The notes beneath the pieces are model-generated. The model searched no databases and was not told where the DNA came from. It saw only the letters and a list, made by a program, of their open reading frames with translations. From the NCBI RefSeq assembly GCF_963921235.1, contig NC_086097.1:77130001-77194000 (forward strand): DNA of 64,000 nucleotides. Reading direction: 5' to 3'. This DNA is from Mobula hypostoma. Lineage: Eukaryota. This document shows positions 6,942-62,600 of the stretch, in pieces (position 1 is the first letter of the stretch; each line of letters begins with the position of its first letter). A program made the translations under genes and the position numbers.

Positions 6942-8628
6942 CACTTCAACTCTACTTCCCATTCTCATTCTGACATGTCAATCCATGGCTTCCTCTACTG
7001 CCATGATGAGTCTACACTCTGGTTGGAGGACCAACACTTTATATTCCATCTGTGTAGCCTCCAACCTGATGGCATGAATATCAATTTCTCGAACTTCTGC
7101 TAAATGCCCACCCCACCTTCACCATTCCCATTCCTGTTTCCATTTCTCAAATATCATCTACTTACCTGCCCATCACCTCCCTCTGATGCTCCTTCCCCTT
7201 CCCTTTCTTCCATGGTCTTCTACTCTCTCCTATCTGATTCCCCCTTCTCCAGCCCTTTATCTCTTTCACCAGCTTCCCAGCTCTTTACTTCACCCCTCCC
7301 CCTCTCCTGGTTTCACCTATTACCTACTACTTTATACTTCTTCCTCCTCTCCCCCTACCTTCTTGCTCTAACTTAGTGTTTCCCAACCTTTTTGAGCCCA
7401 ACGTCCCCCTAAAGCACTTCCATTCTTGCCAATTCCCTCTTAGGCACAATGTACTTTCCGGTGCCCACATAGTGTAAAAACATGTCTACCATATGCCAAC
7501 ATGAGAAAAATTATTCTGATTTAAATTTTTATTTGTCTTTAAACCTCACTTACACAGCACCTGTGATCAATGTGATCCTTGAACTTGATGGTTTTTAGAA
7601 AGAGTTGAAATATCTGGTTCAAGTTGTGACAGCAAAAGCCTTAAGTCCCCATGCGTAACAATGTCCAAGCAGTTTCTGTTTCTTTGTGAGTATGTGCTTC
7701 ACTGCACCAAAGCCTCTTTCAACAAGGTAGGAGTATGGAAATGCAGTGAAGAACAGGTTGGCCCTTCCCCAAAGACCAGTAAACTTCAAATGACAGTGTA
7801 GCCACATACCTCAAAAGCCAAAATTTTTGAAAAACATTTTTGCTGCTTCATCATTCTGAATTTTGTAAATTTCTTCTTGTAAGCTCTCTTCCCATTCTTC
7901 CACTTACAAAGAAATGGTTTAATTACCCAGTCTGGAATATCCAGTTCTTTTAAATGCTTGAATTGGTTCTGAAAATCCTTCTTCAGTGACTGCAAGTGTA
8001 AGTAGTACTCTTGCAAATCACTGTCTGTGAAAGAGAGTGCCATACTTTCCACGCAAGGAAACTGAAAACATTCTTCTCCCATTCTTCTCCCAATGTTTTG
8101 CTTACATATTTCCAATTTTCTGATAAAAGTGGGCACTGCACATTTTACTCCAGGTACTTAACATTGTATTGATGCACTTTCTGTGGCTTCTGTTTCTTCG
8201 CAGTATTAGAATTCAAGGCTTCACTGCCTTCCGACTCAAAGAGATTGTGACGTCTATATTTATCCATCATTAATGGGCCTAAATTAAAATTAAGAATTAA
8301 CACTAACTGGGAATGCTTATCAGATGTTGATGACAGAAACGAGTTGACACGGTCGGTCAGGTCTTTTGCCTCAAGTTAGAATGCCGCCTACCACCTCACC
8401 TCCACCCACCCTCCAAGAATCTTGAATGCCACCCAATGACTTCTATTTCTCCTAACACCCCTGTAGGGCACATTACCGCCCCCGTTGGTTACCAGTGCTC
8501 TAACTTCTCTTCTTTTTTTCCAGTTCTAATGAAGGGTCTCAGCCCGAAATGTCGACTGTTTACTCTTTTCCACAGTTACTGCCTGGCCTGCTTAATCCCT
8601 CCAGCATTTCGTGTGTATTGCTTTGTCT
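6942..8628 (+). mobile_element. Penelope-like element 3' part (GIY-YIG C-terminus + pLTR), interrupted by hAT
   Basis: HFNSTSHSHSDMSIHGFLYCHDESTLWLEDQHFIFHLCSLQPDGMNINFSNF*, a pyrimidine-rich tract, then a pLTR with a degenerate hammerhead motif at 8521-8558. Confidence 0.75.
7374..8497 (-). mobile_element. Internally deleted hAT (Charlie/Buster-type) DNA transposon
   Basis: Exact 8-bp TSD ctctaact (7366-7373, 8498-8505); imperfect TIRs tagtgtttcccaac / gttggttaccagtg; transposase C-terminal FPYSYLVERGF motif. Confidence 0.85.
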
Positions 8629-10089: not shown

Positions 10090-10450
10090 TAGAAACATGG
10101 AAACATAGAAAACCTACAGCACAATCCAGGCCCTTTGGCCCACAAAGCTGTGCCAAACATGTCCTTACCCTAGAAATTACCTAGGGTTACCCCTAGCCCT
10201 CTATTTTTCTAAGCTCCATGTACCTATCCAGGAGTCTCTTAAAGGACCCTATCGTATCCGCCTCCACCACCATCGCCGGCAGCCCACTCCACGCACTCAC
10301 CACTCTCTGCATAAAAAACTTACCCCTGATGTCTCCTCTGTACTTACTTCCAAGCACCTTAAAACTGTGCTCTCTCATGCTAGCTATCTCAGCCCTGGGA
10401 AAAAGCCTCTGACTATCCACACAATCAATGCCTCTCATATTCTTGTACAC
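10090..10450 (-). mobile_element. CR1 3' end
   Basis: ORF 10193-10450 is nearly the same as 15605-15856; (tagaaaca)-type tail. Confidence 0.9.
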
Positions 10451-10454
10451 TTAT

Positions 10455-10630
10455 TCAGTGCTCCCAGTGTGGCTTCCTGTATATTGGTGAGACCTGACGT
10501 AAGCTGGAAGACTGCTTCGCCGAGCACCTATGTTCTGTCCAGCAGAAAATGTGGGATCTCCCTGTGGCCATCTGTTTCAATTCTACTTCCCATTTCCATT
10601 CTGATATGTCAGTCCATGGCCTCCTCTACC
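10455..10630 (+). mobile_element. Penelope GIY-YIG fragment
   Basis: YIGET*RKLEDCFAEHL...FNSTSH; similar to 6942-7000. Confidence 0.65.
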
Positions 10631-11583: not shown

Positions 11584-12451
11584 CTCACAAGTATACATTA
11601 CAAGTCAAGGCACGACTGTGCAGGCACGTGGATGTCAGCGAAATAGACCGGTGGGAAGAATTTTAAAAGAAGACAGCTTTATAGAGTGGGCATTGGAGGA
11701 GCGGGCGACAGAGTAGAGGGAGTCAGAGTAGGAAGGCTTTGGCAATAATGGGTCGAGGCGAGATAAGTTACTTGTGAAGAATATGAATAGGAAGTATGTC
11801 TATGAGGCCGGTATTCTGTACTGGGTGTCCGATGTGGGATGTCCGGGAGAGCTGCAGCTCCTTAGGGACTGGGGTTAGGGAACTGGAGATGCAACTCGAT
11901 GACCTACATCTGATCAGGGGAAGTGAGGGGGTGATAGAGAGGAGCTGCAGGCAAGTAGTCACACTGGGGCCTCGGGAGACAAATAAGTGGGAACCAGTCA
12001 GGAGAGGGAAGGGCAAGAGTCAGACACTAGAGATTATCCCTGCAGCTGTCCCCCTTAACAATAAGTACTCCTGTTTGAGTATTGTTGGGGGGGGTACCTA
12101 CCTGGGGGAAGCAACAGTGGTCACGCCTCTGGCACAGAATCTGGCCCTGTGGTTCAGAAGGGTAGGGAAAGGAAGAGGATGGCAGCAGTGATAGGGTACT
12201 CTATAGTTAGGGGGGAAGACAGGCGATTCTGTGGATGCAGGAAAAAAACATGGATAGTAGTTTGCCTCCCAGGTGCCAGGGTCTAGGATGTTTCTGATCA
12301 TGTCCACAATATCCTGAAGTGGGAAGGAGAACAGGCAGAAGTTGTGGTACATCTTGGTACCAATGACATAGGCAAGAAAAGGAAGGAGGTCCTGAAAACA
12401 GACCACATGGAGTTAGGAAAGAAGCTGAGAAGCAGGACCTCAAAGATAATG

Positions 12452-12716
12452 ACGCAAACACGAGGAATTCTGCAGATGCTGGAAATTCAAGAAACACACA
12501 TCAAAGTTGCTGGTGAACGCAGCAGGCCAGGCAACATCTCTAGGAAGAGGTACAGTCAACGTTTCGGGCCGAGACCCTTCATCAGGACTAACTGAAGGAA
12601 GAGCTAGTAAGAGATTTCAAATCCTGACGAAGGGTCTCGGCCCAAAACGTCGGCTGTACCTCTTCCTAGAGATGCTGCCTGGCCTGCTGCGTTCACCAGC
12701 AACTTTGATGTGTGTT
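12452..12716. mobile_element. Penelope pLTR-derived fold-back mini-element
   Basis: 95-bp inverted arms 12493-12587 / 12622-12716; TSD cctcaaag(a/g)taatg at 12438-12451 and 12717-12730. Confidence 0.85.
12553..12590 (-). ncRNA. Minimal type-I hammerhead ribozyme motif
   Basis: Minus strand UAGUC-CUGAUGA-AGGGUCUCGGCCC-GAA-ACGU-U-GACUG: intact core boxes, stem I, stem II and palindromic ACGU stem III. Confidence 0.7.
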
Positions 12717-15700
12717 CCTCAAAGGTAATGATATCGAGATTACTGCCTGTGCCACGCGACGGTGAGTATAGGAATAGAGTGAGATGGAGGATAAATGCAT
12801 GGCTGAGGAATTGGAGCAAGAGGCAGGGGTTCAGATTTCTGGATCATTGGGACTTCTTTTGGGGCAGGCGTGACCTGTACAAGAAGGACAGGTTGCACTT
12901 GAATCCAAGGGGTACCAATATCCTGGCAGGGAGGTTTGCTAAGGCTCTTGGGGAGAGTTTAAACTAGAATTGCTGGGGGTGGTGGGAACCAAACTAAAGA
13001 GACAGAGGAAGGGGCAGTTGGCTCACAAATAGAGACAGCTTGTAAGCAGTATGAGAGGGAAGATAGGCAGGTGATAGAGAAAGGAAGCACTCAGACTGAT
13101 TATTTGAGATGTGTTTATTTCAATGCAAGGAGTACCATGAACAAAGCAGATGAGCTAAGAGTGTGGATCAGTACTTGGAGCTATGATGTTGTAGCCATTA
13201 CAGAGACTTGGATGGCTCAGGGGCAGGAACGGCTACTTAGAGTGCCAGGCTTTAGATGTTTCAGAAAGGATAAGGAGAGAGGCAAAACAGGTGGGGGCGT
13301 GGCACTGTTGATCATAGTGTCACAGCTGCAGAAAAGGAGGAAGACATGGAGGGATTGTCTACAGAGTCTCTGTGGGTGGAAGTTAGAAACAGGAAGGCAT
13401 AAATAACTCTACTGGGTGTTTCTTATAGACCACCCAATTGTAACAGGGACATCAAGGAGCAGATAGGGAGACAGATTCCGGAATGGTGCAGTAATAACAG
13501 GGTTGTCGTGATGGGAGATTTTAATTTCCCCAATATTGACTGGCATCTCCCTAGAGCAAAGGGTTTAGATGGAGTGGAGTTTGTTAGGTGTGTTCAGGAA
13601 GGTTTCCTGACGCAGTATGTAAATAAGCCTAGAAGAGGAGAGGCTGTACTTGATCTGGTATTGTGAAATTAACCAGGTCAGATTCAGGTCTCTCAGTGGG
13701 AGAGCACTTTGGAGATGGTTCTATCTCCTTTACCACGGCATTGGAGAGGAATAGGAACAAACAAGTTAGGAAAACATTTAATTGGAGTAAGGGGAAATAT
13801 GAAGCTATCAAGCAGGAACTTGGAATTATAAATTGGGAACAGATGTTCTCAGGGAAATATATGGCAGAGATGTGGCAAATGTTCAGGGGATATTTGTGCG
13901 GCGTTCTACATAGGTACGTTCCAATGAGACGGGAAAAGTTTGATGGTAGGGTACAGGAACCGTGGTGGACAAAGGTTGTTGAAAATCTAGTCAAGAAGAA
14001 AAGAAAGTCTTACGCAAGGTTCAAAAAGCTAGGTAATGATAGAGATCTGGAAAATTATAAGGCTAGTAGGAAGGAGTTTAAGAATGAAATTAGGAGAGCC
14101 GGAAGGGGTTATGAGAAGGCCTTGCCGAGCAGGATTAAGGAAAACCCCAAGGCATTCTTCAAGTATGTGAAGAGCAAGAGGATGAGACGCAAGAGAATAG
14201 GACCAATCAAGTGTGACAGTGGAAAAGTGTGTATGGAACCAGAGGAGATAGTGGAGGTATTTAATGACTACTTTGCTTCAGTATTCATTATGGAAAAGGA
14301 CCTTGGCCATTGTAGGGATGACTTACAGCAGACTGAAAAGCTTGAGCATATAGACCTTAAGAAAGAGGATGTGCTGGAGCTTTTGGAAAGCATCAAGTTG
14401 GATAAGTCGCTGGGACCGGACGAGATGTACCCCAGGCTTCTGTGGGAGGTGGGGGAAGAGATTGCTGAGCCTCTGGCAATGATGTTTGCATCATCAATGG
14501 GGATGGGAGAGGTTCCGGAGGACTGAAGGGTTGCAGATGTTGTTCCCTTATTCAAGAAGGTGAGTAGAGATAGCCCAGAAACTCATAGACCAGTGAGTTT
14601 TACTTCAGTGGTTGGTAAGTTGATGACGAGGATCCTGAGAGGCAGGATTGATGAACATTTGGAGAGGCATAATATGATTACAAATAGTCAGCATGGCTTT
14701 GTCAAAGGCAGGTCGTGCCTTACGAGCCTGATTGAATTTTTTGAGGATGCGACTAAACACATTGATGAAGGTAGAGCAGTAGATGTAGTGTATATGGATT
14801 TCACCAAGGCATTTGACAAGGTACCCCTTGCAAGGCTTATTGAGAAAATAAGGAGGCATGGGATTCAAGGGGACCTTGCTTTGTGGATCCAGGACTGGCT
14901 TGCACATAGAAGGCAAAGAGTTGTTGCAGACAGGTCATATTCTGCAGGGAGGTTGGTGACCAGTGGTGTGCTTCAGGGATCTGTTCTGGGACCCCTGCTC
15001 TTCGTGATTTTTATAAATGACCTGGATGAGGAAGCGGAGGAATGGGTTAGTAAATTTGCTGATGACACAAAGGTTGGGGGTGTTGTGGATAGTGTGGAGA
15101 GCTGTCAGAAGTTGCAGCGGGACATCGATAGGATGCAAAACTGGACAGAGAAATGGCAGATGGAGTTCAACCCAGATAAGTGTGAGGTGGTTCATTTTGG
15201 TAGGTCAAATATGATGGCGGAATTTAGCATTAATGGTGAGACTCTTGACAGAGTGGAGGATCAGAGGGATCTTGGGGTCCGAGTCCATTGAACTTTCAAA
15301 GCTGCTGCATGGATTGACTATGTGTTAAGAAGGCATACGATGTATTGGTATTCATCGACCATGGGATTGAGTCCAAGAGTCGAGAGGTAATGTTTCAGCT
15401 ATATAGGACCTTGGTCAGACCCCATTTGGAGTATTGTGCTCAGTTCTGGTCACCTCACTACAGGAAGGATGTGGAAACTATAGAAAGGGTGCAGAGGAGA
15501 TTTACAAGGATGTTGCCCGGAGTGGGGAGCCTTATGAGAATAGATTGAGTGAACTCGGCCTTTTCTCCATGGAGTGACAGAGGATAAGAGGTGACCTGAT
15601 AAAGGTGTATAAGATGATGAGAGGTATTGATCGTGTGGATAGTGAGAGGCCTTTTCCCTGTGCTGAAATGGTTAATACGAGAGAGCACAGTTTTAAGATG

Positions 15701-16179
15701 CTTGGAAGTAGGTACAGAGGAGATGTCATGGGTAAGTTTTTTATGCAGCAAGTGGTTAGTGCGTGGAACGGGCTGCCAGCTACGGTGGTGGAGGTGGATA
15801 CAATACAGTCTTTTAAGAGACTCCTGGATAGGTACATGGAGCTCAGGAAAACATAGGGCTATGGGTAACCCAAGGTAAGTTCTAAAGTAAGTACATGTTT
15901 AGCACAACATTGTGGGCCAAAGGGCCTGTATTGTGCTGTAGGTTTTCTATGCTTCAATGTTTCTATGAGTCATCTCAACTGGCACATTGCAAGTGAGAAA
16001 ATTGTTAAAAATATAACAACAATGAAGAATATTAGGATAAACGGCATAATGTCTAGCAGTTATCAACTCTATTTGATGTTTCTGGCTGGTTCGTGATTTT
16101 CTCACTATGGTCCAGCAGTATAGGCACTGAGCTGGATGTTACTAGCACATTAACCACGGCACTTGTTGTCCTCGTTGGG

Positions 16180-17420
16180 CACCACTTTCGTTTACTTGCA
16201 GTGGCTAGCGTTTATCTACTTACTTTTACCTTCTAGTTTCACTGCAGATTTAGTAAATAACAGTACTTGATAATGACCTTCCCATTGAGCTCCTAGTGGT
16301 TCCTTATGCAGTTTTTTAAATCAGGACCCATACACCAGGAGTCAGATGTGTCCTCCTTCTGTTGGCTCACTCCAAGTGGCAGAAACCTGTTGAGAAACAA
16401 GTTGTAGAGCTTGGGTTAATTTCACACAATAGTTAACTAAACTACGCAAACACAAGAAAATCTGCAGCTGCTGGAAATTCAAGCAACACACACAAAATAC
16501 TGATGGAACGCAACAGGCCAGGCAGCATACCTGCTGCATTCCACCAGCATTTTGTGTGTGTTGCTTGAGTTAACTAAACTAAATAGGTAAGTAAATATGT
16601 ATATCAGCCTCGCTGAGATCAAGATCTCCCAGCAGTGACATAGGATGCCCTGTTATTACCTTAAATGAACAGTATAGTTTTCTTGTTTGGGGTTGTTCTG
16701 ATGCTACATAAGACCAAAGGAAGAGCTGTAGGCCATAACATGATACTTAGTCAGCTGTTTGATGACATTCAACTTGTCCTGATGATTCTGGGTGATGTGG
16801 ACAATGAAACAACCATTCAATGTTCATCAGTCTGCAGAGTTCCTGACAAACACTTCCAGGGAAATGTATTCCTTAGTCAGAGTCGATGTGACATGGCAAT
16901 CTCCATCTAGGAATATAATCCTTGATCAAAATTTTTGCTGTGAGTGTGGAATGACTTCTTTTGTTGGAATAACTTCCATCCATCAGTATGTCTAAATTCC
17001 CTTGACACTTTGGCAAAGATATGTAGTCCACTTGTAAATGTACGTTTGTAAAAATGGACCAGGTAAGGCAGGAGCGCTTAATTGTGCTAGCTTTTCCACT
17101 GCTTCAGGATTTGTTTTCTAGCACACCATGCATCTTTCAAATGTTTGTCGAGCTTTGGATTCCACCACCATTGGGAGAATCTGTTCATCATCTTTTTCAC
17201 TCCAGTGTCTCCTTGGGTGTGTATCTGCTGTGCCAGATTAGGAAGACAGATGGAGCTACTAGTCTATGACTAGTGCCATATCTCCATGTTCCATCACTGT
17301 TGAATATCCTACCATTCTCCATCAAGAACCACTTTTCCTGGTTAGAACATTGAACTTGCACCTCTCGAATATCTCATCTGTTCATCTGTGATACAGAGTT
17401 CAACTTTGATCCATAACATT
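16180..17420 (-). mobile_element. Endogenous retrovirus integrase (decayed)
   Basis: HTQGDTGVKKM...WWNP...CMVC; HLQVDYISLP; PRWRLPCHIDSD*GIHF; HCPHHPESSGQVE; WPTALPLVLCSIRTTP; KEPLGAQWEGHYQVLL...INASHCK. Confidence 0.85.
16445..16567. mobile_element. Short Penelope pLTR-derived fold-back insertion
   Basis: Inverted arms of about 39 bp; exact 14-bp TSD agttaactaaacta (16431-16444, 16568-16581). Confidence 0.8.
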
Positions 17421-23288: not shown

Positions 23289-23595
23289 TAGGACTGCAAT
23301 CAAAATATTATTGGATTGCATCAAAATATAATTAAATTGCAATCGAAATATCATTTTAGGACCAGGATTTTGCTTTAGGATTTCAGTCGAAATATTGTAG
23401 GATTGCAATCAAAATATCATAGGGTTGCACTCTGAACATTTTGTAAGATTGCAATTGGAATTTCTTATAGGATTGCAATTGATATATTATTGATTTGCAA
23501 GTGGCAATATTTCCCTCACTGGATTACAGTCTCAATGTTTTTTAAGCATTAGATTACAATCGGATGATTTCATAGGTACTGCACAATATTAATAT
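23289..23595. repeat. Degenerate ~22-bp tandem array (taggattgcaatcaaaatatca-like), about 12 units
   Basis: Repeated gattgcaat cores visible directly. Confidence 0.75.
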
Positions 23596-25231: not shown

Positions 25232-28200
25232 TATTAATGCCCAATCAACATGGGCAAGTTTTTCTTTTGTTTAAGGAACTTTACTTTCAACGTCTCCATT
25301 CAATACCTGAAGGCTGCCACCTTTACATTCCACAATTCCCTCTCCTCCTCTGAAGTGCACATGCGCAAAACGGGGAGAGCGCACATATGTAATACTTACA
25401 CAGTTCAAGTGAACAGGACTCAACAATCTCCCATCTTTTTTATGTATATATTAAAAACATTAAATTTGAAAATAAATTTAAAGACAAATTAAATGTCCAA
25501 ACAATTTGTATGTCCATTAGGATATGAGAAATAGTTCTAACTCTTGATGTTAATACAATTCTTAAGGTACCAAGTGCCTTTAACAGCACAAGAGCTAGAA
25601 CTCCCTTCTTTGTGAGACAGTCAGCTAGTTGTTTCTTTGTAGTTGACCATAGCACATGATGAATTTTCAGTGCTTGGACAAGTTCTTCGATGCTGCTTAT
25701 CTCTAGACGAAGCCTCTTCTCTATAACTGATTTGGTGGATTTGATGGCATCAACCAAAAAGTAATTTTGTCTGTGACACAAGTTATTTGTAGACTGTTCT
25801 TCTTTGGGTCACATGGAAAAGCTCAGAACAGAGTGTGACCAGAAAAACAGCATTGTCAATACCTTCAGACATTGCCAGGGTTTCTCCTGCCAGCATACTA
25901 CTTACAACTCGGATCCTTTTTGATTCCCAATAGAGAGATGAAAATCTTCCCTCTTCTCCCATCAGTACAATAAAATGTCCCCCTTGAGTTCCTCCATCAG
26001 AAGGATTTCAGAGTGAGGCATCACTGAAGACAACAAGCCTCAGTAAGTTATCTTTTCCAAGCTGTTGAAACTTCTAGACTATTTTTTCAGATTGAATTCA
26101 TGTACACTATCTTGTTTGCCTCATGTAAAGTATATACTGTGGTATTTTTTGTGCTGGATGCCAAGTTGAAGGCTTCAAACATAATGTCAGGTGTGCTCTA
26201 TCTTTCCACCCATAGAATCTGACCCATCTTTCACCTACATTGCTCAGCTTCAGCTTTACTGAGGGGTGCATCCCATTGTGTGGCACGGTCGGATTCCATG
26301 CGGATTGTCTGAAGATTCCTTATGTAGCTTTCCTCGTGCAGTTGTACTGTTCTGTCAACAGCAAGGATGTCTATCCCTGCATAGCAGAATCTGTCACGTT
26401 CATCCTGTCCAACCTGAAAGACTGACTTTAGCTGAGGGATAACTGTCGTAGCAAAGTTTTGTGAGCCTCCCGATATGAAGTCATCTACAAGACAGGTAAG
26501 TATTCCAATCACATGAAATCCTGAATCTTCCAGTAAGAAACAGCTGGATCCACTTGTGACATCTTTCCATCTGTTTTTAACATTATTTCCTTCACCTTTT
26601 TATACCAGTAGAGTGATGCATTTGTTAGACCATACACACACTTTTTGAGTTTCCACAGTGTTCCTTCACTTCTGGCTTCAGGCGGTGTTGAATAAAAATG
26701 TCTTGTGACAAGTCCATTCCCTGTAAGAATGCGGATTTTATATCCACACAGTGGGGTTGTCAATGCTTTTGACATATTACCGAGAGAAGTAGTGGGAGAG
26801 ACGGATGCATATGTTGGTGAATCTTTCCGGAGTTCTTCTAATTTCAGTTCCTCAAAACCTCTAACCACCCAGTGTGCTTTTGATATAATTCCTGAAGGGG
26901 TTTCTTTCGGGGTGCATACCCATCTTGTAGACACTGTCTTTTGGCCAATATCTCTGACTTCCTCGAACACACCATTATTTCTCCAACTACTGATTTTATC
27001 CTGTTTTGCGATTCAAAAGACACCTCCTTAGTTACTAGGACATCTTCAACTTGACATTTCTCAGATGGTCCAGCCTGATCTCTACTTGATTCAATATGAA
27101 GTCTGTCAACATGTGACATGTCAACTGACTCTGCAGTGCCAGTGACCGTGACTGATTCTAGGGAATTCAAGTTGTACCAACTTTTGCTTCTCCCAGTGTC
27201 TTTGCCTGCTTAACTTAAGACTTCAGCATTGTCTGAGGTACCAGTGTCTACAAATCTCACAGTTTGTCCTGTTTTAAGACTGAAACTTACATGTTGTCTT
27301 TGCACTTGTGATAATTTCTGTTCGGGCAAGTCTGTTAAGTTCCCATCTGCACTCTCTTTTACACTGTCTGTGCCACCACTGAGCAACTCTATTGAATCCC
27401 CAACTGAACTCTCTTCATCCCTGTCTGTGCTATGTGACCGTGTGCCAGGTAAATGCTTTTCATTTTTTATGTCATTCTCCATGGCATTCTGATGGTCTTC
27501 ATTTTGTGCTTTATCTAGTCTAGAATGATGCACCCCCACATTTGTACCTCCGTGTCTCACGAATACCACAACTCCAACCCGACCAGTGACAACTCCTGGA
27601 CCTTTCCATTCTGTACGGTATGCTGTTTTGTAATAGACTTTGTCCCCTGTGTCATATTTGTCATTTGTAGGACGGACCTGTGCCCTCAGTGCTCTTCGAA
27701 TTCTCTCTGAACACTCTGCTTCAGTGAAAGTTTTCCTTGATGCATGCAGTTTTGAAATATGTTTCCTAACCCATTTACTCCTTGAAGGGCCACCTAGAGC
27801 AGGTGGTCTGTCAACCAGTATAGAGGGAAGATTTGGATTCTGACCGAACACCAATCGATATGGTCTATAGCCATATACATTGTACAAGGTGTTCTTCACC
27901 ATAAGGGCCCAGTCCAGGGCTGTATTCCAATCATAGCCCTTGCTTTCCTTTACCTTCAGCATTGTTTCTGTAAGCGTTTGATTATGTCACTCCACAAGTC
28001 AGTTACTCCAAGTACTATATGCCGCTGTTGTCTTTGTTTCAGTGTTAAAGTTCTCTGCCGTATCTCTGAGGGTCTCTTTGTATTTACAATGCTACCAGCA
28101 CTGAAAGGTGTGAACTATCAATGATGTGGAGGTACCATACTCCTTGCTGCAGTTCATGTAAGTCTATGGCTACTGTTTCATTGTATTCAAATGCTGGTGG

Positions 28201-31713: not shown

Positions 31714-32062
31714 GTAAGTTACTACTGGCTGACCAAGGACTACTTCAAGAAAAGGAACTCAAGTTTTCATCTTAGGAAGAATCAGAAATTTGCAATTGAG
31801 ATGTACTTGAAATTATATGAGTTACCCTGGTTGCTTTTCGTCAATCAGCCAAATCATTTAGAATAATTAAATCAGGTTAACTATTGGAGGTCAAGAAGCA
31901 AGTTACTTCATGAGATAAAATTAGTAACTACATGTTCTTTTCCTCAGAAGAATCAGAGGAGCAAAGGAGGAGAATGCTTGCAAAAGCAACTCTTTAGTTT
32001 TTGTCATCAGAATAGCAAGCATTGCTCTTTGCTTATTCTGGGTTTTGCGACAGTTTCAAAAA

Positions 32063-33598
32063 ATGATGGAATCAGATCTCTTAAGGAATGGATCCATGAC
32101 TGGTAACAGCTCCAATCAAGAGGAGGGTCAGAGCCTTTTGAAAGTAGTATCAATTTCCATTATTACTGCTATTGTGAGCCTTGTAACAATAGTAGGTAAT
32201 ATTTTAGTCATTGTTTCATTCAAAGTGAACAGCCAGCTAAAGACAGTCAATAACTATTTCCTGTTAAGTCTAGCCTGTGCTGACCTCATCATTGGAATTT
32301 TTTCAATGAATCTCTACGCCTCTTATATATTAATCGGCTCCTGGTCGCTAGGAAATTTGACGTGTGATTTGTGGCTTGCGTTGGATTACGTAGCCAGTAA
32401 TGCCTCTGTCATGAATTTGCTCCTTATAAGCTTCGACCGGTATTTCTCAATCACACGGCCATTAACGTACAGGGCTAAGCGTACTCCCAGAAGGGCTGGT
32501 ATCATGATTGGACTTGCATGGTTAATATCCTTTATATTGTGGGCCCCTGCAATTTTATGTTGGCAATACTTAGTTGGAAAAAGAACGGTTCCTTCGAATG
32601 AATGTCAGATACAATTTTTATCTGTACCTACTATTACCTTTGGCACGGCCATTGCTGCTTTCTACATCCCTGTGTCAGTGATGACGATATTGTATTGTCG
32701 CATCTATAAAGAGACCGAAAGACGCACTAAGGACCTGGCAGAATTGCAAGCATCAAACCTTGCCCCTGAAGATGAAGTAGTTGTTTCCAAAAGGACTCTG
32801 TTAGCATCCTGCTTTGGATGTGTAGGCCACAAGCTCACACACAGGGAAAGATCCCAAGTATCGTGGTCTTCAAACAGAAGCACAACAGTGACTCTAAGAT
32901 CCACAAACATACAGAATGCCACAGATGAATGGTTAAAACGTGACAACCAAGATTCTTTTGCAAACTACCCCATGTCAGAAGATGATGAAAGGCTCACCCC
33001 AAAATCTGCCTCCTTGGCATCACAAGGACAGAATCAGAATGATGAATACCCTGGAGAGGATGACACAACTGTGTCCTTGGAAGAGCCTCCTGCGATAAAT
33101 AATTATGAAAATCAAAATTATTTGGTGACCCCTGTGAAAAAACAGAAGGATAAAAAGTACATCCCTTACAAAGGTAATAAAGTAGCTGTCAAAAATAGCA
33201 GCTCCTCATCCACCTCAGACACAAGTAATGGCTGCACTGAAATAAAAGTAACACCCCGCTCAACTGCTGAACCAGAAGTTCCATATATTAGAAATATGGA
33301 TCCAAATCTCAGACTGCAGATCACCAAGAGAAAACGGTTGGTTTTGATTAAAGAAAAAAAGGCAGCACAAACACTTAGCGCGATTCTACTGGCTTTCATT
33401 ATCACATGGACACCGTACAATATCATGGTATTAGTCTCAACGTTCTGCTCATACTGTATCCCAACGTCACTGTGGCATCTGGGGTACTGGCTCTGTTACG
33501 TTAACAGCACAGTTAACCCCATGTGCTACGCTCTGTGTAACAAAACCTTCCGTACGACTTTCAAAATGCTGTTACTATTTCAATGGAAGCGGAAGTGA
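32063..33598 (+). CDS. CHRM5: Muscarinic acetylcholine receptor M5, 511 aa, intronless CDS
   Basis: 7TM class A GPCR with [22 protein letters not shown]5-type [47 protein letters not shown]. First ATG at 32063. EMC7 lies downstream on the opposite strand, as in human. Confidence 0.95.
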
Positions 33599-37687: not shown

Positions 37688-38382
37688 TTACAGCTCATCA
37701 CGCGAGGTACTGCTGCATTTGACTTCCCTGTTTTTAGGCTTTACCATCATCCATGCATACTTGCACAGGTTATCTTTATTACAATCATTCTGCCAGTAAA
37801 TAACATTTTTTCTGTTGAGATTGGCTCCAGCACAGGCATTATACCACCATCCTCCACCTGGTATCCCATTGAGTTCCAGTTTGGCACAATTTCGATAATA
37901 GTTGTCATTATCACTATCTTTTGTGGTGAATTTTTGGTTGTCGTGAATATAAGCTTCTGTATCTTTCGTCAAAGCATCAGTTGCAGTTCCACGATAAAGA
38001 CCAAGTCTAATTTTATATCTGGATTCTTCGTCTTCAATGAAAAATGGGTCATATTCTCCCCACTTCACCTCTCCATTCATGTTGACTAATTTGATTCCCA
38101 AACTATATTCATTTGACCTGCTAGTGATTCTATGCATTAACTCATTGCCCAACCAATGATCACCATTAATAAAGCCAAATCCTTGCTTGTAGTCCTGCCA
38201 CGTTCTGTCAAAGTCCAATGAGCTATTAACAGTGATGTGCTGGATTACAGTCCACCCACCATCTGCACTGTGCATGTCACAGTAAACAACAATATGATCC
38301 TTCATTAACTGAATGACATAGAGGCCATCTTCAGCTTTGCTTTCTGACTGCTGAAAAATCTCATAACAGTCACTTGGAAAAC
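37688..38382 (-). CDS. Fibrinogen-related-domain (FGL1-like) protein, coding exon 2
   Basis: Acceptor ttgtgcag|GT, phase 1; SDC, VYCDM, GGWTVIQ, WQDYKQGFG, WLGNE, FTTKDSDND, GGWWYNAC..NLN; ends RDEL*. Confidence 0.93.
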
Positions 38383-38729
38383 CTGCACAACACAAAATGA
38401 TTAGTACAACAATCAGTTGAGAAATTTTACATTTTTCATCTAGCAAAAATTCATTGGAAGAAAAGGAAAATGGACAATTTGTGAAACAAGTAGTCAGACA
38501 TGTAACCGCATTAAACAAGGCCTTTTTTTGCAGGTGCTGATTTCTGTGGTTTATTCTGTGTTAATATAACATTAATACTAATTCTTACATCCCAATAGCT
38601 CTACTCTCTTGCTGCATTGTATTTTACTGCGGTAAAAGTACAAAAAAGGTATATATTGATCCACACAACTATAATTATTGCCTCACAAGGACATATACAA
38701 CATCCACCCTGAAGCTAATTCAGACTTAC

Positions 38730-41520: not shown

Positions 41521-44210
41521 GAACTTAACCAATTTTGGTTGGAGAATCTGGACACTGGGACAGAACCTCAAACAGGAAGCACCAGTCAAAATATCTAATG
41601 CCAAATAAAGTCTAGAATGTGAAATAAACAAAAGTTGGTTTAAGAGAGATGGATAACCAGCATGACGGAACATTAGCTGGTCCTCCTCCCTCACAGATCC
41701 AGTGACTGGAATTTGATCCTGATCTTTGTGCTGTCTGGGTAGAGTTTGTAAATTTCTCCTTGCACCCATACAGAATCCTGTCAGGTACTCCAGTTTATTT
41801 CCAAGTTCAAGGAGGTGGTACTAAATTGACTTGGCTACTGTAAATTACTCCTTAATGCAGGTTGAAGCAAACTATATAATTGGAACTGATGGGCAGGTGA
41901 CAAAAAATAAATTGGAGGCTAAAGGGAAATAAGAGGGAGAATGTGTCTAATACAACTCTTTTGCTGGGAGCTCACATTGATTGATTGCTCAAATGTCCTT
42001 CAGTATTGTCATAGAGTAGGTTACATTAAGGAAGACAGTACAATTAAAATCTGAAGGGGCAATCTAACAGATGGGGAAGTTAATTTTCAGTACTGCAGAA
42101 GATGCTTGGTATGTCCAAAGCTTACCATGTCCAAAGGTCACTGCAACAATGAACCTGCTATTTCACCTTTGAACGTGATGCTTCAGGGTGAGCATACCAT
42201 TTTGAACAGCAACTTCTGGATTCCTTTGTTAAAGTAAGCATGTATTGTCACCATCCATGTCTAAGTTATACTTTATTAATAGCAAACCTTCAATCACAGC
42301 ATCGCCTATGATGTGATTGTCATAGAAAATACATGCCACAGTGCCACATAAAGGCAAAAATGATACAATTACAGATATGAATATCATGGCGCATCGCCTC
42401 CACCTACTGATATAACATGAGATAAATGAAGGGTAGAATATAAGGAAAAATAATTACAAAGCACAATGAAGATATCAAGTAAACAAAATCACTGCACAAT
42501 CTTTTCTTCACATTGTCCCACTTAGGCAAATAAGCAATGACATAGGTCGAGGATGTCAATCTATAAAGTAGTTTTAATAAATCATAATGCAATAATTTAC
42601 TTGCAAAGAAACAGTCTCACCCAAAAATTTAGTTTGGTAAAATAATTAACCTGCAGTTAATTTCCTAAAAATTGCATTCATTGAATTTTTCTGTTGTTTG
42701 AAGAGGTAAAAACTTTGTGTTTTCCTGGAAAATAATCTAAAGTTTCACAAATTTACAACTGATTTCTTCAGGAATATTTAGTAATGATTGTAATTATAAG
42801 ATATTTTAAAATAATTTTCATTCCCTTCTATGCTTCAGCTAATACCATCACTCAATATGGCACATAACAATATAGGTCAATAAAGTTCTTTACCTCAGCT
42901 GAGTTAACCAATAATAATAGTTCAGAGGGAAAGCCTATTAGTTATCCATTGATTTTGTATAAGGTCATATCAAGCTAAAGAATCCATACCCTCTCTGGAT
43001 ATGCTAAGTTACTAACCAGCCTGGCGGTGGGAAGAGAAAATTATTTAATAAAGTAGATAAAGCCATAGAAAACCATTTGTACAATGACAAAATTGTTCAA
43101 AGGTTAAAGCCTACAAACAGAAATTCAAGAAAAGACTAAAATATTATAGCCTATAAAAAATGAAATTATAAAATTTGCCTGGTGGCCGCTGATGGAGTAA
43201 CAGCTCTCTGCTGGTGCTCCCAACTTACTTACTTTTGTCTCCAACATTTTGAAATCCTACTGCTAGACAGGTTATTATATTACTATGACTACCAAAGAAG
43301 CTTTGGAAGCTATTACAGGCTCAATTCAAAAGCTTACTGAGGAGTTTCAACAGCTCAGAAAAGAAGCGTCGGCTGACTCGCAACAAATCAGCACTGAAAT
43401 TAAACAAATAGGGACGAAATTAGACGATATTCAAGCGACTCTAACCAAGCATGACAAGAAAATAAAGGAAAATGAGGATGGATGAGAAAATGGATGATTT
43501 GCAAAAGCTGTATGACAAACAATCCAAGTCCAACGAAATACTGAGAGAGAAGATTATTGATTTGGAAAACAGAAGTAGGAGAGACAACTTACGAAACTTG
43601 GGACTTAAAGAGCAAACTGAAGGAGATAATCCTAAAGAATTCTTTGCAAACCTTTTGATGGAATTATTCCCTGATATAATAAAGTTTCTGTCTTTGATTG
43701 ATCGTGCTCACAGATCACCTATCTATGGATCAAGTTCAAAATCAAAACCAAGATCTAGAGCGCTCTAGGTTACTCCAAGGGGAACTGACCAGACAAACCA
43801 GCAGCCCACACTCAACCCCAAGGCTACTTATATTCCAAGCCCCAAGATGGAAATCAGGTGCCTATGATTAACTCAAACAAGGGACAGCTGGAAGACCCGG
43901 AGTCCTGAGTCCACAGACCGGACCGTGAACTGGAATGCGGACTTCACGGACCGGACCATGACAGTCTAAGCTTTTTTTTATCTGTATATTATTTAGTCTT
44001 GGTTGGAACAGTAAATAATCTTGAGTTCTCTGAAGCTGTTCGAACAGGCTTTCTAAGGGGATGTTTTCAGTGGGGGTAAATAGCGGTTGTTCTTTGACCA
44101 ATTTTCTTTCTTTGGGAGGAGGGAGAGGTATGGGGAGTTCTTTATTCTTGAAGCTGATTTGGGAATCTAATCAATTCTGTTGTTTAGCTAATATATCTCA
44201 AGATTTATTA

Positions 44211-44373
44211 AAGTTGCTGGTGAACGCAGCAGGCCAAGCAGCATCTATAGGAAGAGGCACAGTCGACGACGTCGACTGCGCCTCTTCCTATAGATGCTGC
44301 TTGGCCTGCTGCGTTCACCAGCAACTTTGATGTATGTTGCTTGAATTTCCAGCATCTGCAGAATTCCTGTTGT
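44211..44373. mobile_element. Penelope pLTR-derived fold-back mini-element
   Basis: Near-perfect ~59-bp arms with apex cagtcgacg-a-cgtcgactg; exact 13-bp TSD tcaagatttatta (44198-44210, 44374-44386). Confidence 0.85.
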
Positions 44374-45349
44374 TCAAGATTTATTATTTAGGTTTAGTAC
44401 ACATTTCTCTGATTGCTACTTTAAACTTTCTTATAAATAGTTTTTAAATGGATCAAAGTATTAATTTACTTAGTTTTAACGTGAAAGGGCTAAATCACCC
44501 CATGAAAAGAAATAAGATTTCTGCCTGTATTAAAAAACTTAAGGTACCAATTGTTTTTGTTCAAGAAACCCATGTACGTAAGTGTGACAATTCACGCCTT
44601 TTTATCGATGAAGATGGTCTCATCTCCATTCATTGTTTCAGGTCAAAGCCAGAGCAGTTTCGATCTTTATAGATAATAAAGTTCCCTTTGTTCAACATAA
44701 AGTAATTTCTGATACTAATGGGCATATTGTTATAGTATCAGGGAAGCTAAGGAACAAACTAATGATATTTGCCAATGTGTATGCTCCGAATATAGATGAT
44801 CCAGGTCTTTCTGAGCGTTTTTTTCCCCATTTTTGCTAGATCTAAGACTGCTCATTGGTGATGGGTGGAGACTTTAATTGTTGCTTAAATCCAGCTTTAG
44901 ATCGTTCATCTTCTAAACTAATGATACCAAGTAAATCAGATGTGTTTATTAAATCTTTTTTAATGAAATGTGGTATTGTTGATGCTTGGTGTTTTTTTTT
45001 CATCCAATAGACAAGGATTATTTGTTTTTCTCTCATGTCCATTATACATATTCCAGGATTGATTATTTTTTATTGATAGCAAAATGATTCCATCAGTTCA
45101 ATCCTGTGAATATAAAGAGATTGCTGTCTCAGTTCACGCTCCTGTGCTCCTATCTTTAAGTATCCCTGGTCTTCTTCAAACAAAGAGGTTTTGGCGATTT
45201 AATTTAACTTTATTATCTGATAAAGATTTTTTAAGGTTTATGGAGAGACAAATTACTCTTTTTTTTAAGAGAATACATTAGAGGAGACATCTAATCTTAT
45301 CAGATGGGATGCCATTAAGGCATATATTACAGGACAAATTATTTCTTAT

Positions 45350-50879: not shown

Positions 50880-51085
50880 TTGCAACACCCACAAAATGCT
50901 GGTGGAACGCAGCTGGTCTGGCAGCTTCTATAGGAAGTACAGTTGACGTTTTGGGCCAAGACCCTTCATCAGGACTAACTGAAAGAAGAGATAGTAGAGA
51001 TTTAAAAGTGGGAGGGGGAGGGGAGATCCGAAATGATAGGAGAAGACAGGAGGGGGGAGGGAGGAAGATAAGAGCTGGAAAGCAT
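50880..51085 (-). mobile_element. Penelope pLTR fragment with degenerate hammerhead
   Basis: Minus 50940-50977 reads tagtc-ctgatga-agggtcttggccc-aaaacgtc-aactg. Confidence 0.75.
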
Positions 51086-59668: not shown

Positions 59669-62600
59669 GGGCACGACTGCGCAAGCGCATGGATGTCAGC
59701 CAGTTAGAACAGCGAGAAGAGTTTAAAAGGAGACAGTTTTATAAAGTGGGCAACAGAGTAGAGGGAAACAGAGTAGGAGGGCTTTGGCTTAATGGGGCTT
59801 CAGCGATAACGAGTTGAAGCAAAGTAGGTTGCCTGTGTAGAATACATACAGGAAGAATGTGTGTGAGGCCGGTGTTCTGTGCTTGGGTGTGAGATGTGGA
59901 AAGTCTTGGAGACTCCCAGCCTCCCGGATGGCCACATCTGCGCCAGGTGCATCGAGCTGCAGCTCCTTAAGGACCATGTTAGGGAACTGGAGATACAGCT
60001 CGATGACCTTTGTCTGGTCAGGGAAAAATGAGGTGACAGATCAGAGCTATAGGCAGGTAGTCACACCGGGGCCTGGGGAGACAGATAAGTGGGTAACAGC
60101 AAGGAGAGGGAAGGGCAGGAGTCAGAGGCTAGAGAGCACCCCTGTGGCTGTACCCCTTGACAATAAGTACTCCTGTTTGAGTACTGTTGGGGGAATGGCC
60201 TACCAGGGGGAAGCAATTGTGGCCGTGCCTCTGACACAGAGTCTGGCCCTGTGGCTCAGAAGGGTAGGGAAAGGAAGAGGATGGCAGCAGTGATAGGGGA
60301 CTCTACAGTAAGGGGGTCAGACAGGCGATTCTGTGGATGCAGGAAAGAAGCATGGATGGTAGTTTGCCTCCTAGGTGCCAGGGTCCAGGATGTTTCTGAT
60401 CACGTCCATGATATCCTGAAGTGAGAAAGAGAACAGCCAGAGGTCGTGGTACATATTGGTACCAATGACATAGGCAGGTAAAGGGAGGAGGTCCTGAAAG
60501 TAGACTAAAGGGAGTTAGGAAGGAAGTTGAGAAGCAGGACCACAAAGGTAATCATCTTGGGATTACTGCCTGTGCCATGTGACAGTGAGTATAAGAATAG
60601 AATGAGGTGGAGGATAAATGCCTGGCTGAGGGATTGGAGCGGGGGCAGGGATTCAGATTTCTGGATCATTAGGACATCTTTTGGGCAAGGAGTGACCTGT
60701 ACAAAAAGGATGGGTTGCACATGAATCCCAGGGGGACCAATATACTGGCGGGAAGGTTTGCTAAGGTTATTCATCATCATCAGGTGCCGTGCCCAGTTTG
60801 AGCTTTGACTGCCATAGCCCACACACTCCTGTTTCAAGTCAAGTGGATCAATTCATTGGTATTCATTTCCAGTTCTCTGGCTGCTGTCTCCATCATCATT
60901 TGTCTTTGTCTTCCTCTTGCTTTCTTCCCTTCAACCTATCCCATAATTACCGTGCATTCTAACGCCTCTTTCCTAATCACATGTCCAATGAAGATACGTT
61001 GCCTTTTCATGATCTCATACATTATTTCTCTTTTTGTGTTTGCTCTGTTCATGACATCCTCGTTAGATATTCGTTTCGTCCATGATATTCTTTGCACCCT
61101 CCTCAAGAACCACATCTCTGCTGCTTCAATTCGTTTCCTCATGTTACTAGATATTGTCCAGCATTCTGAGCCATATAACATAACTGGATAAACGTAACAT
61201 TTCAGTACTCTGAGGTGGGTTGTCATGCCTAGTTTAGTATTGGTCAGTATACTCTTCATTCTTGTAAAGGTGTCTTTTGCCATCCCTATTCTTCTTTTGA
61301 TGTCCATGTCGCACCTGCCATCTGATCTCACTCAGCTTCCTAAGTAGCAAAAGTTCTGAACTTGTTTTATGTCTTCCCCATTTATTCTCAGCCTGTAGAC
61401 AGGATTCACCTTCTTTTTGGTATCACCATACATTCTGTCTTTTTGCAATTGATAGATAGACCCATTTTTTCACTTTCTTCAAGAGCTATAACAATTCAGT
61501 TTTGTAGTTCTTCCTTCGTACTTGCAGTTGACAGTGTCATCTGCATATCAGAAATTATTGATGTTTTCACTGCCAACTTTGATTCCCAAGATGTCTCTTA
61601 TTTTTTGTATTGTTTCACTGTACACTTAAATAAATCAGGGAGAAAACACACCCTTGTCTAACGCCTCTCTTGATTTTCGTAAACTGACTCACTTCTCCAT
61701 CTATTCTTACAGCGGCAGTACAGATTTCTGATTTGGTGGAGGTCTTTCAAATCTAGATCCAGTTTTCTGTAATATTTCAAATAACTTATTGTGCTTCACT
61801 TTATCAAATGCTTGTGTAGTCAATTAAACAAACAAATCTTTTTGCACTTGAATAGCTCATTCTGATAGTATCCTTAACATCAATATTGCGTTTCTTATAC
61901 TTTTGTCTTTACAAAACCACATTGTTCTTTACCCATTTCAGCTTGTATCTTACTTTTAGCTCTTGTTACCAAAATTCTTAGAAGTATCTTGATGATATGA
62001 CTCATTAAACATATGGTCTTATATAATTCACATTCTATCGCTCCAGGTTTCTTAGGAAGAGTGATAAATACTGATTTTTTTGTCTCTTCTGGTATTATTC
62101 CAGTCTCATAAATGTCACTGATTAAATAAGTTTTTCTTCAAGGGTGATAATTTGTTCTACTACTAATTCAATAGCTAAGGCTATTGGGAGAGTTTAAACT
62201 AGGATTGCTGGGGGGTGGGAACCAAACTGATGAGACAGACGAAGAGGTAGTTGGCTCACAAATAGAGAAAGATTGGAGACAGTGCGAGAGGAAGGATAGG
62301 CAGGTGATAGAGAAGGGACTCGCTCAAACTGATGGTTTGAAATATGTCTATTTTAATGCAAGGAGTATTATGAACAAAGCAGATGAGCTTAGAACGTGGA
62401 TCAGTACTTGGAGCTATGATGTTGTGGTCATTACAGAGACTTGGATGGCTCAGGGGAAGAAATGGTTACTTAGAGTGCCAGGCTTTATATGTATCAAAAA
62501 GGACAGGGAGAGAGGCAAAAGAGGTGGGGACATGGCACTGTTTATCAGAGATAGTGTCACAGCTGCAGAAAAGGAGGAAGATATGGAGGGATTGTCCACG

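Follow-up and report, generated by a model that had tools for sequence, protein, structure and literature searches.

The window analysed here, a 64-kb stretch of Mobula hypostoma DNA, contains at 12452-12716 a 265-bp fold-back insert that splits the SGNH/GDSL esterase-like ORF1 frame of a CR1-like LINE. The insert is bordered by a target-site duplication (TSD), and its two inverted arms carry opposed hammerhead motifs on either side of a spacer that continues the longer arm upstream (Table 1). The overall size of the insert and its 95-bp arms are as the original prediction had given them. The same repeat occurs in five stretches of the window, three of which are fold-backs and two of which are single arms. 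Elsewhere, the window holds an intact 556-codon rhodopsin-family receptor frame (31928-33598, plus strand; 7tm_1, E=1.2e-65), which looks like a muscarinic acetylcholine receptor, and a 290-codon open frame (37688-38560, minus strand) whose product resembles proteins with a fibrinogen C-terminal domain. The integrase- and RT-like frames at 26231-27986 (minus strand) are broken and resemble a copia-type retroelement, and a small tandem-like repeat at 23289-23499 has a 32-nt unit, four copies of which are irregularly spaced.

Table 1. The fold-back insert, its target and the related repeat copies, in window positions
Feature	Position	Strand	Basis or remark
Coding-element 3' fragment: GIY-YIG ORF end, then pyrimidine-rich 3' region overlapping the 50884-51083 copy	6942-7376	+	Sequence matches
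Single-arm copy, related subfamily, decayed hammerhead motif	8494-8623	+	Alignment
Host LINE, CR1-like, ends approximate	11787-15966	+	Lipase_GDSL_2 E=1.1e-7; Exo_endo_phos E=1.1e-5; RVT_1 E=1.4e-31
Left TSD copy, 14 bp	12438-12451	+	13/14 vs 12717-12730; single in empty paralogue near 60540
Penelope 'tail', 41 nt, long arm only	12452-12492	-	Between recurring element ends 12452/12456 and 12493; loose-end peaks
Long arm, paired part (pLTR 3' part, sense on minus)	12493-12587	-	95 nt, 5 mismatches vs other arm
Minimal type I hammerhead motif, core intact, triplet GUU (majority GUC)	12554-12589	-	Hand annotation; majority letters from runs
Spacer, 34 nt, long arm continuing into the pyrimidine-rich upstream region of the element	12588-12621	-	Aligns with single-arm copy 50884-51083
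Short inverted arm, 95 nt (12587 to 12493 of long arm)	12622-12716	+	Sequence comparison
Second hammerhead motif, broken	12624-12655	+	G12 to A at 12644 (GAAA to AAAA); helix I cut by junction, changed at 12653
Right TSD copy	12717-12730	+	13/14 vs left copy
Third fold-back, perfect 13-bp duplication (TSDs included in span), without hammerhead	16431-16580	+	Sequence comparison
Second fold-back, 12-bp duplication (TSDs included in span)	44199-44386	-	Apex on helix III palindrome
Single-arm copy, sense on minus, begins at 12493 equivalent (inner end), ~75 nt further upstream	50884-51083	+	Alignment

Comparison of the two arms revealed that all five mismatches over 95 nt are transitions, three of them at CpG. 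A 14-bp TSD had been predicted, and a duplication is indeed present, but it is imperfect, with 13 of its 14 positions identical. A duplication of this quality at the spacing of the insert is unique to this site (two overlapping offsets among 63,707 window positions), and the window itself provides an empty site, in a paralogous LINE copy near 60540 where the target sequence is single and carries no insert. Given that the duplication is unique at this spacing and that the LINE paralogue is empty, the insertion is genuine and of some age. A fold-back chimera from assembly or library preparation might be suspected, as such artefacts commonly take the form of inverted repeats and no listed contig spans the whole stretch; however, the arms differ mostly by CpG decay, the TSD has a mismatch of its own and the paralogue is empty, such that an artefact can for practical purposes be dismissed. 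To look beyond the window, contigs of four public runs (X1, X2, X9 and X15; 24 listed) were aligned to 12410-12645, giving 54,869, 65,631, 33,959 and 8,363 aligned contigs, respectively; the status of X15 as an RNA run is a guess. A perfect snap-back apex followed by a later 27-nt deletion was considered and rejected, as these contigs match the reference as far as 12621, beyond which they carry the upstream sequence of the element.

The repeat can be connected to a coding element through a chain of overlapping fragments in the window. An ORF end at 6942-7100 leads to 7272-7320, which matches 51083-51036 at 82% (E=1.8e-6, 49-nt overlap), and 51036-51083 leads in turn to an arm with the hammerhead. 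The 53-residue ORF end gave three protein matches, from two rays, at 73-83% identity. All three of these ray proteins have an RT motif and a GIY-YIG match of 18.8-20.9 bits, which is below the Pfam cut-off of 22.6, and they are without most of the RT core. A second decayed piece of a Penelope-like element (PLE) endonuclease lies at about 10430-10629 on the plus strand (74% to P0001 over 43 residues, 10447-10626). The GIY-YIG pieces of the window gave no GIY-YIG match when searched alone, no full-length coding element was seen and the fragment at 6942-7376 stops ~15-20 nt short of the expected hammerhead start. Taken together, the overlap chain and the relatives that bear RT and GIY-YIG indicate that the repeat is a pLTR, derived from the 3' end of an endonuclease-positive PLE, with the link made by overlap of separate fragments, one of them 49 nt at 82%. 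The insert is arranged as endonuclease-positive PLE insertions are, having an inverted, 5'-truncated copy placed head to head, a tail at one end and a short TSD. The Penelope background to the original prediction is correct, in that the arms are pLTR ends with minimal hammerhead motifs, inserted as an inverted pair with the enzyme supplied by another copy. The open frame in the arm (12452-12616, minus strand) was also considered as a gene and set aside, its peptide giving no Pfam family. Exact-pattern scans of viral and metagenome contigs returned no matches.

Expressed in long-arm coordinates, the focal fold-back comprises 12452-12621 joined to 12493-12587, the one at 44199-44386 comprises 12457-12562 joined to 12504-12561, and the one at 16431-16580 comprises 12452-12537 joined to 12488-12526. 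All three apexes differ and each fold-back has its own duplication, of 14, 12 and 13 bp, respectively. The two single-arm copies (50884-51083 and 8494-8623) are not bordered by any clear duplication, and the window holds no second copy of the focal apex. Full elements with inverted pLTRs, one tail and a 9-10 bp duplication have been described (PMC3846280), and a longer PLE insertion of this type could in principle have lost its middle by deletion, leaving the arms adjacent as they are now. We consider this very unlikely, as the focal junction at 12621/12622 is free of microhomology and all three fold-backs in the window are this short; short single-arm copies also exist, and so short primary products suffice.

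The original prediction had proposed an Infernal-type hammerhead search as a check, and the Rfam models did not recover either motif. There was no hammerhead match at the gathering score across the window, and none of the nine matches at E<=10 in 12300-12900 is a hammerhead, these matches being generic hairpins. Since Rfam gave no match, the motifs were called by hand against the published description of the minimal hammerhead (PMC4209133). In the minus-strand motif, helix I is formed by 12589-12586 paired with 12557-12554 (4 bp) and the core CUGAUGA lies at 12585-12579, with one extra A after A9. G10.1-C11.1 follows, with a helix II of 4 bp closed by a 4-nt loop, GAAA at 12565-12562 and a palindromic, zero-loop ACGU helix III, such that every feature of the minimal hammerhead is present (CUGANGA, GAAA, the extra base after A9, G10.1-C11.1, palindromic 15.2-16.2 and helices I and II). 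Cleavage is predicted between 12558 and 12557. The cleavage-site base 12558 is U, where the base giving C makes up 84% of the depth in run X1. The description of this motif as intact thus holds for its core, but it has GUU where most copies have GUC and it lacks an Rfam match. The plus-strand motif is damaged in the way that had been described, with GAAA changed to AAAA and stem I disrupted. Its G12 to A change, which is at a CpG, also accounts for 11-19% of depth across the four runs, and two things break helix I of this motif: the arm starts only within the 5' strand of the helix, and 12653 is changed.

The two motifs are ~35 nt apart and lie head to head on opposite strands, with one motif per strand. 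Any transcript would therefore carry one motif together with its complement, and dimer pairing within one RNA is impossible. When folded, the 265-nt RNA forms one long stem (MFE -201.3 kcal/mol) with the motif buried in the 95-bp duplex, and helix I and II pairs have a probability below 0.0001 on either strand. The lone minus arm, folded under the same model, has a helix II probability of 0.0007; given that the lone arm likewise disfavours helix II, the computation speaks to the inability of the fold-back to help rather than to cleavage by a lone arm. The nearest-neighbour model, which ignores core contacts, preferred a different dimer (-28.5 vs -14.5 kcal/mol). The 24 loose-end rows listed, of 1,071 from the public runs, do not include a peak of run-off ends behind 12557, where the cut is predicted. 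It seems that the insert needs no ribozyme motif of its own and probably cannot use those that it has.

These observations bear upon the larger claim of the original prediction, namely that this is a ribozyme-bearing hairpin mobilised in trans. A non-autonomous 265-nt unit, transcribed and re-inserted by PLE proteins, has some appeal, as the insert is small, non-coding, bounded by a TSD and keeps the tail region in which the PLE protein begins its synthesis, such proteins do work in trans on RNA that carries a pLTR (PMC3846280), and non-autonomous PLE derivatives exist (PMC8557442; bioRxiv 10.64898/2026.07.22.740005). The depth past the apex is also above zero, at 0.081% of arm depth in X1, 0.122% in X2, 0.138% in X9 and 0.036% in X15, values that are upper bounds since depth is not copy number and some joints are uncounted; in a very large family, some hundreds of copies of one apex would still fit within about 0.1%. 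Against this, no second focal apex occurs in the window or in the 32 listed contig pieces, none of which passes 12621. The 15 joints listed, of 200, all begin at different places (12506 to 12589). All 15 enter at 12621/12622, which is partly an effect of the reference, and this was not counted as a hot spot because the second arm is present in the reference only from that point, and several start offsets are pooled. Such a unit would, in addition, have one sense motif per transcript, with helices I and II scarcely formed in the fold described above, both motifs show private decay and copying from the outer start would need to cross the 95-bp duplex. An amplified 265-bp unit, with many copies sharing the same ends and internal junction, is not supported by the window or the four runs, and nothing points to it. 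A different breakpoint in every copy, which had been set down beforehand as the pattern of independent abortive insertions, is what the three fold-backs of the window display, and with past-apex depth at no more than 0.04-0.14% and many different joints we hold mobilisation in trans to be highly improbable.

Our preferred reading, to which we attach a probability of roughly 0.87, is that the insert is a single dead insertion by an endonuclease-positive PLE of a cartilaginous fish, a one-off event and not a self-spreading ribozyme unit. It consists of two 5'-truncated 3' ends of the element joined head to head, one with a tail, within a TSD. PLE protein nicks each of the two target strands and extends it, and it begins reverse transcription at two internal sites of the RNA, one on either side of the tail; the purified protein needs no hammerhead cleavage for cutting or extending its target (PMC11167929). 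Staggered nicks 14 bp apart would have provided two primers. The first cDNA may have started at the outer site, 12452, and reached 170 nt, with a second started on the opposite strand at the equivalent of the inner site, 12493, reaching 95 nt, after which the two cDNA ends would have been joined bluntly. The copy would then have decayed, mostly at CpG. As the hammerhead lies ~65-130 nt from the start sites, both cDNAs would have crossed it, and the two opposed motifs would therefore be a by-product.

The ends of the arms provide some evidence on these starts. Loose contig ends were found before 12456 in 305 (X1), 378 (X2) and 72 (X15) contigs, before 12452 in 74 contigs (X15) and before 12493 in 335 (X1) and 461 (X2) contigs; run X9 had no peak at 12452, 12456 or 12493 among its six listed loose-end rows. 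The recurring end sites 12452/12456 and 12493 are thus 37-41 nt apart. Half of the listed pieces (16 of 32) start at recurring sites, six at 12452-12456, four at 12488-12489 and six at 12493. The focal long arm starts at the outer site, and the outer end of the focal short arm falls exactly on the inner site 12493, which favours priming from both target strands. Across the window, the short arms of two of the three fold-backs end on recurring starts (12493 and 12488), and that of 44199-44386 ends 11 nt inside the inner site.

For this step of the mechanism alone, a single polymerase run is a serious contender, if one that we place short of even odds. Here the first cDNA would jump back onto itself or, in a route proposed in PMC3846280, self-prime on antisense RNA, copy 95 nt and then jump to the other side of the target. 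Palindromic head-to-head junctions have been read as self-priming in earlier work (PMC3846280), and the fold-back at 44199-44386 suits such a route, since helix III has its ACGT palindrome exactly at the apex, with a 3-nt stutter, and the predicted cut lies a few bases before it. The short arm of this copy also ends off the recurring starts, which two-sided priming does not predict. At the focal insert, however, the long-arm end has no complement beside the start of the short arm, making plain snap-back priming impossible there, and the exact match of the short-arm end to the inner recurring start also counts against a single run. Weighing two-sided priming against a template jump over the three fold-backs, we give them nearly equal odds, two-sided priming being slightly favoured.

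The place at which the focal spacer ends is also of interest in this respect. In both subfamilies, the sequence immediately before the hammerhead core has a pyrimidine tract, a branch-point-like word and an AG (12588-12621, 50970-51010 and 8494-8522), and the focal short arm begins at 12622, right after this conserved AG, the acceptor-like AG with which the spacer ends. Judged by the splice consensus, the region may represent a splice acceptor, or alternatively an initiator. The 5' end of helix I is where an intron terminates in D. virilis (PMC4209133; intron data PMC2377424). Loose ends also peak at 12587-12589 in all four runs, although this peak is mixed because the related subfamily diverges at the same point. 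Of the two, a stop at the AG would point to the 5' end of an RNA more than to splicing, as no upstream exon is found in the junction. One may go further and suppose that short fold-backs record both-strand priming by a PLE protein dimer from two fixed starts, with one common stop being an RNA boundary at the conserved AG (a splice acceptor or transcription start); we offer this broader proposal tentatively and think it doubtful as a whole.

The locus itself matters little, being a single decayed member of a very abundant repeat, and both the inverted pLTR with a tail and the opposed minimal hammerheads are already in print (PMC8557442, PMC4209133). How PLEs form inverted pLTRs has nevertheless been described as still undefined (PMC8557442), and among the publications searched, a set that leaves out most subscription journals, we found none stating an origin of fold-backs by two-sided priming. 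If the outer ends of short arms match both start sites in many copies, this would tie the both-strand extension observed in vitro (PMC11167929) to the inverted arrangement that genomes display. The great size of the family makes the genome a natural experiment on the origin of inverted pLTRs and tails. Read-through of fold-back copies would yield RNA duplexes of 40-95 bp, which could feed small-RNA silencing.

The hammerhead motifs are closest to the minimal hammerheads of metazoan PLEs (PMC4209133), with which they share the type I layout, a helix I of 4-5 bp, the extra base between 9 and 10.1, G10.1-C11.1, palindromic 15.2-16.2 without a loop 3, and dual motifs on opposite strands. As in D. 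virilis, moreover, helix I has an acceptor-like site at its 5' end (PMC4209133). The focal helix II is 4 bp, compared with 7-8 bp in the schistosome families (PMC4209133). Opposed minimal hammerheads 100-700 bp apart have been reported and read as truncated PLEs, whereas the focal motifs are much closer together; cartilaginous fish are not named among the hosts in the portion of that source available to us (PMC4209133). In PAc/Poseidon of Anolis (PMC11167929), as here, two starts bound the tail and lie ~85-105 nt downstream of the hammerhead cut site. Unlike those elements, the focal repeat has no start codon at helix II in its majority letters.

Animal non-LTR retrozymes, which have been reported in one chondrichthyan, are likewise non-coding, hammerhead-bearing and derived from PLE pLTRs (bioRxiv 10.64898/2026.07.22.740005). 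They are, however, head-to-tail tandems with a motif per unit on one strand, whereas the focal insert is head to head with one motif per strand and does not contain the at least two complete same-strand motifs, in head-to-tail tandem, that define this class. Dimer cleavage of PLE hammerheads has similarly been attributed to same-strand tandems (review PMC6765202). A close parallel is with the complex insertions of endonuclease-positive PLEs (PMC8557442; PMC3846280, Pen2a_Av). In the focal insert, unlike in these, the copies are cut to 170 and 95 nt, and so there is no ORF between them, and the TSD of 14 bp compares with 8-10 bp in the rotifer examples (PMC8557442; PMC3846280). The focal tail of 41 nt stands beside the 30-40 nt described for PLEs (PMC8557442; PMC11167929), and an inverted, 5'-truncated copy with a tail of 30-40 bp is a described PLE layout (PMC8557442; PMC8969392). 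What the focal insert and the complex insertions have in common is the arrangement itself: inverted 3' ends placed head to head, a tail at one end, a short TSD and a retroelement as target.
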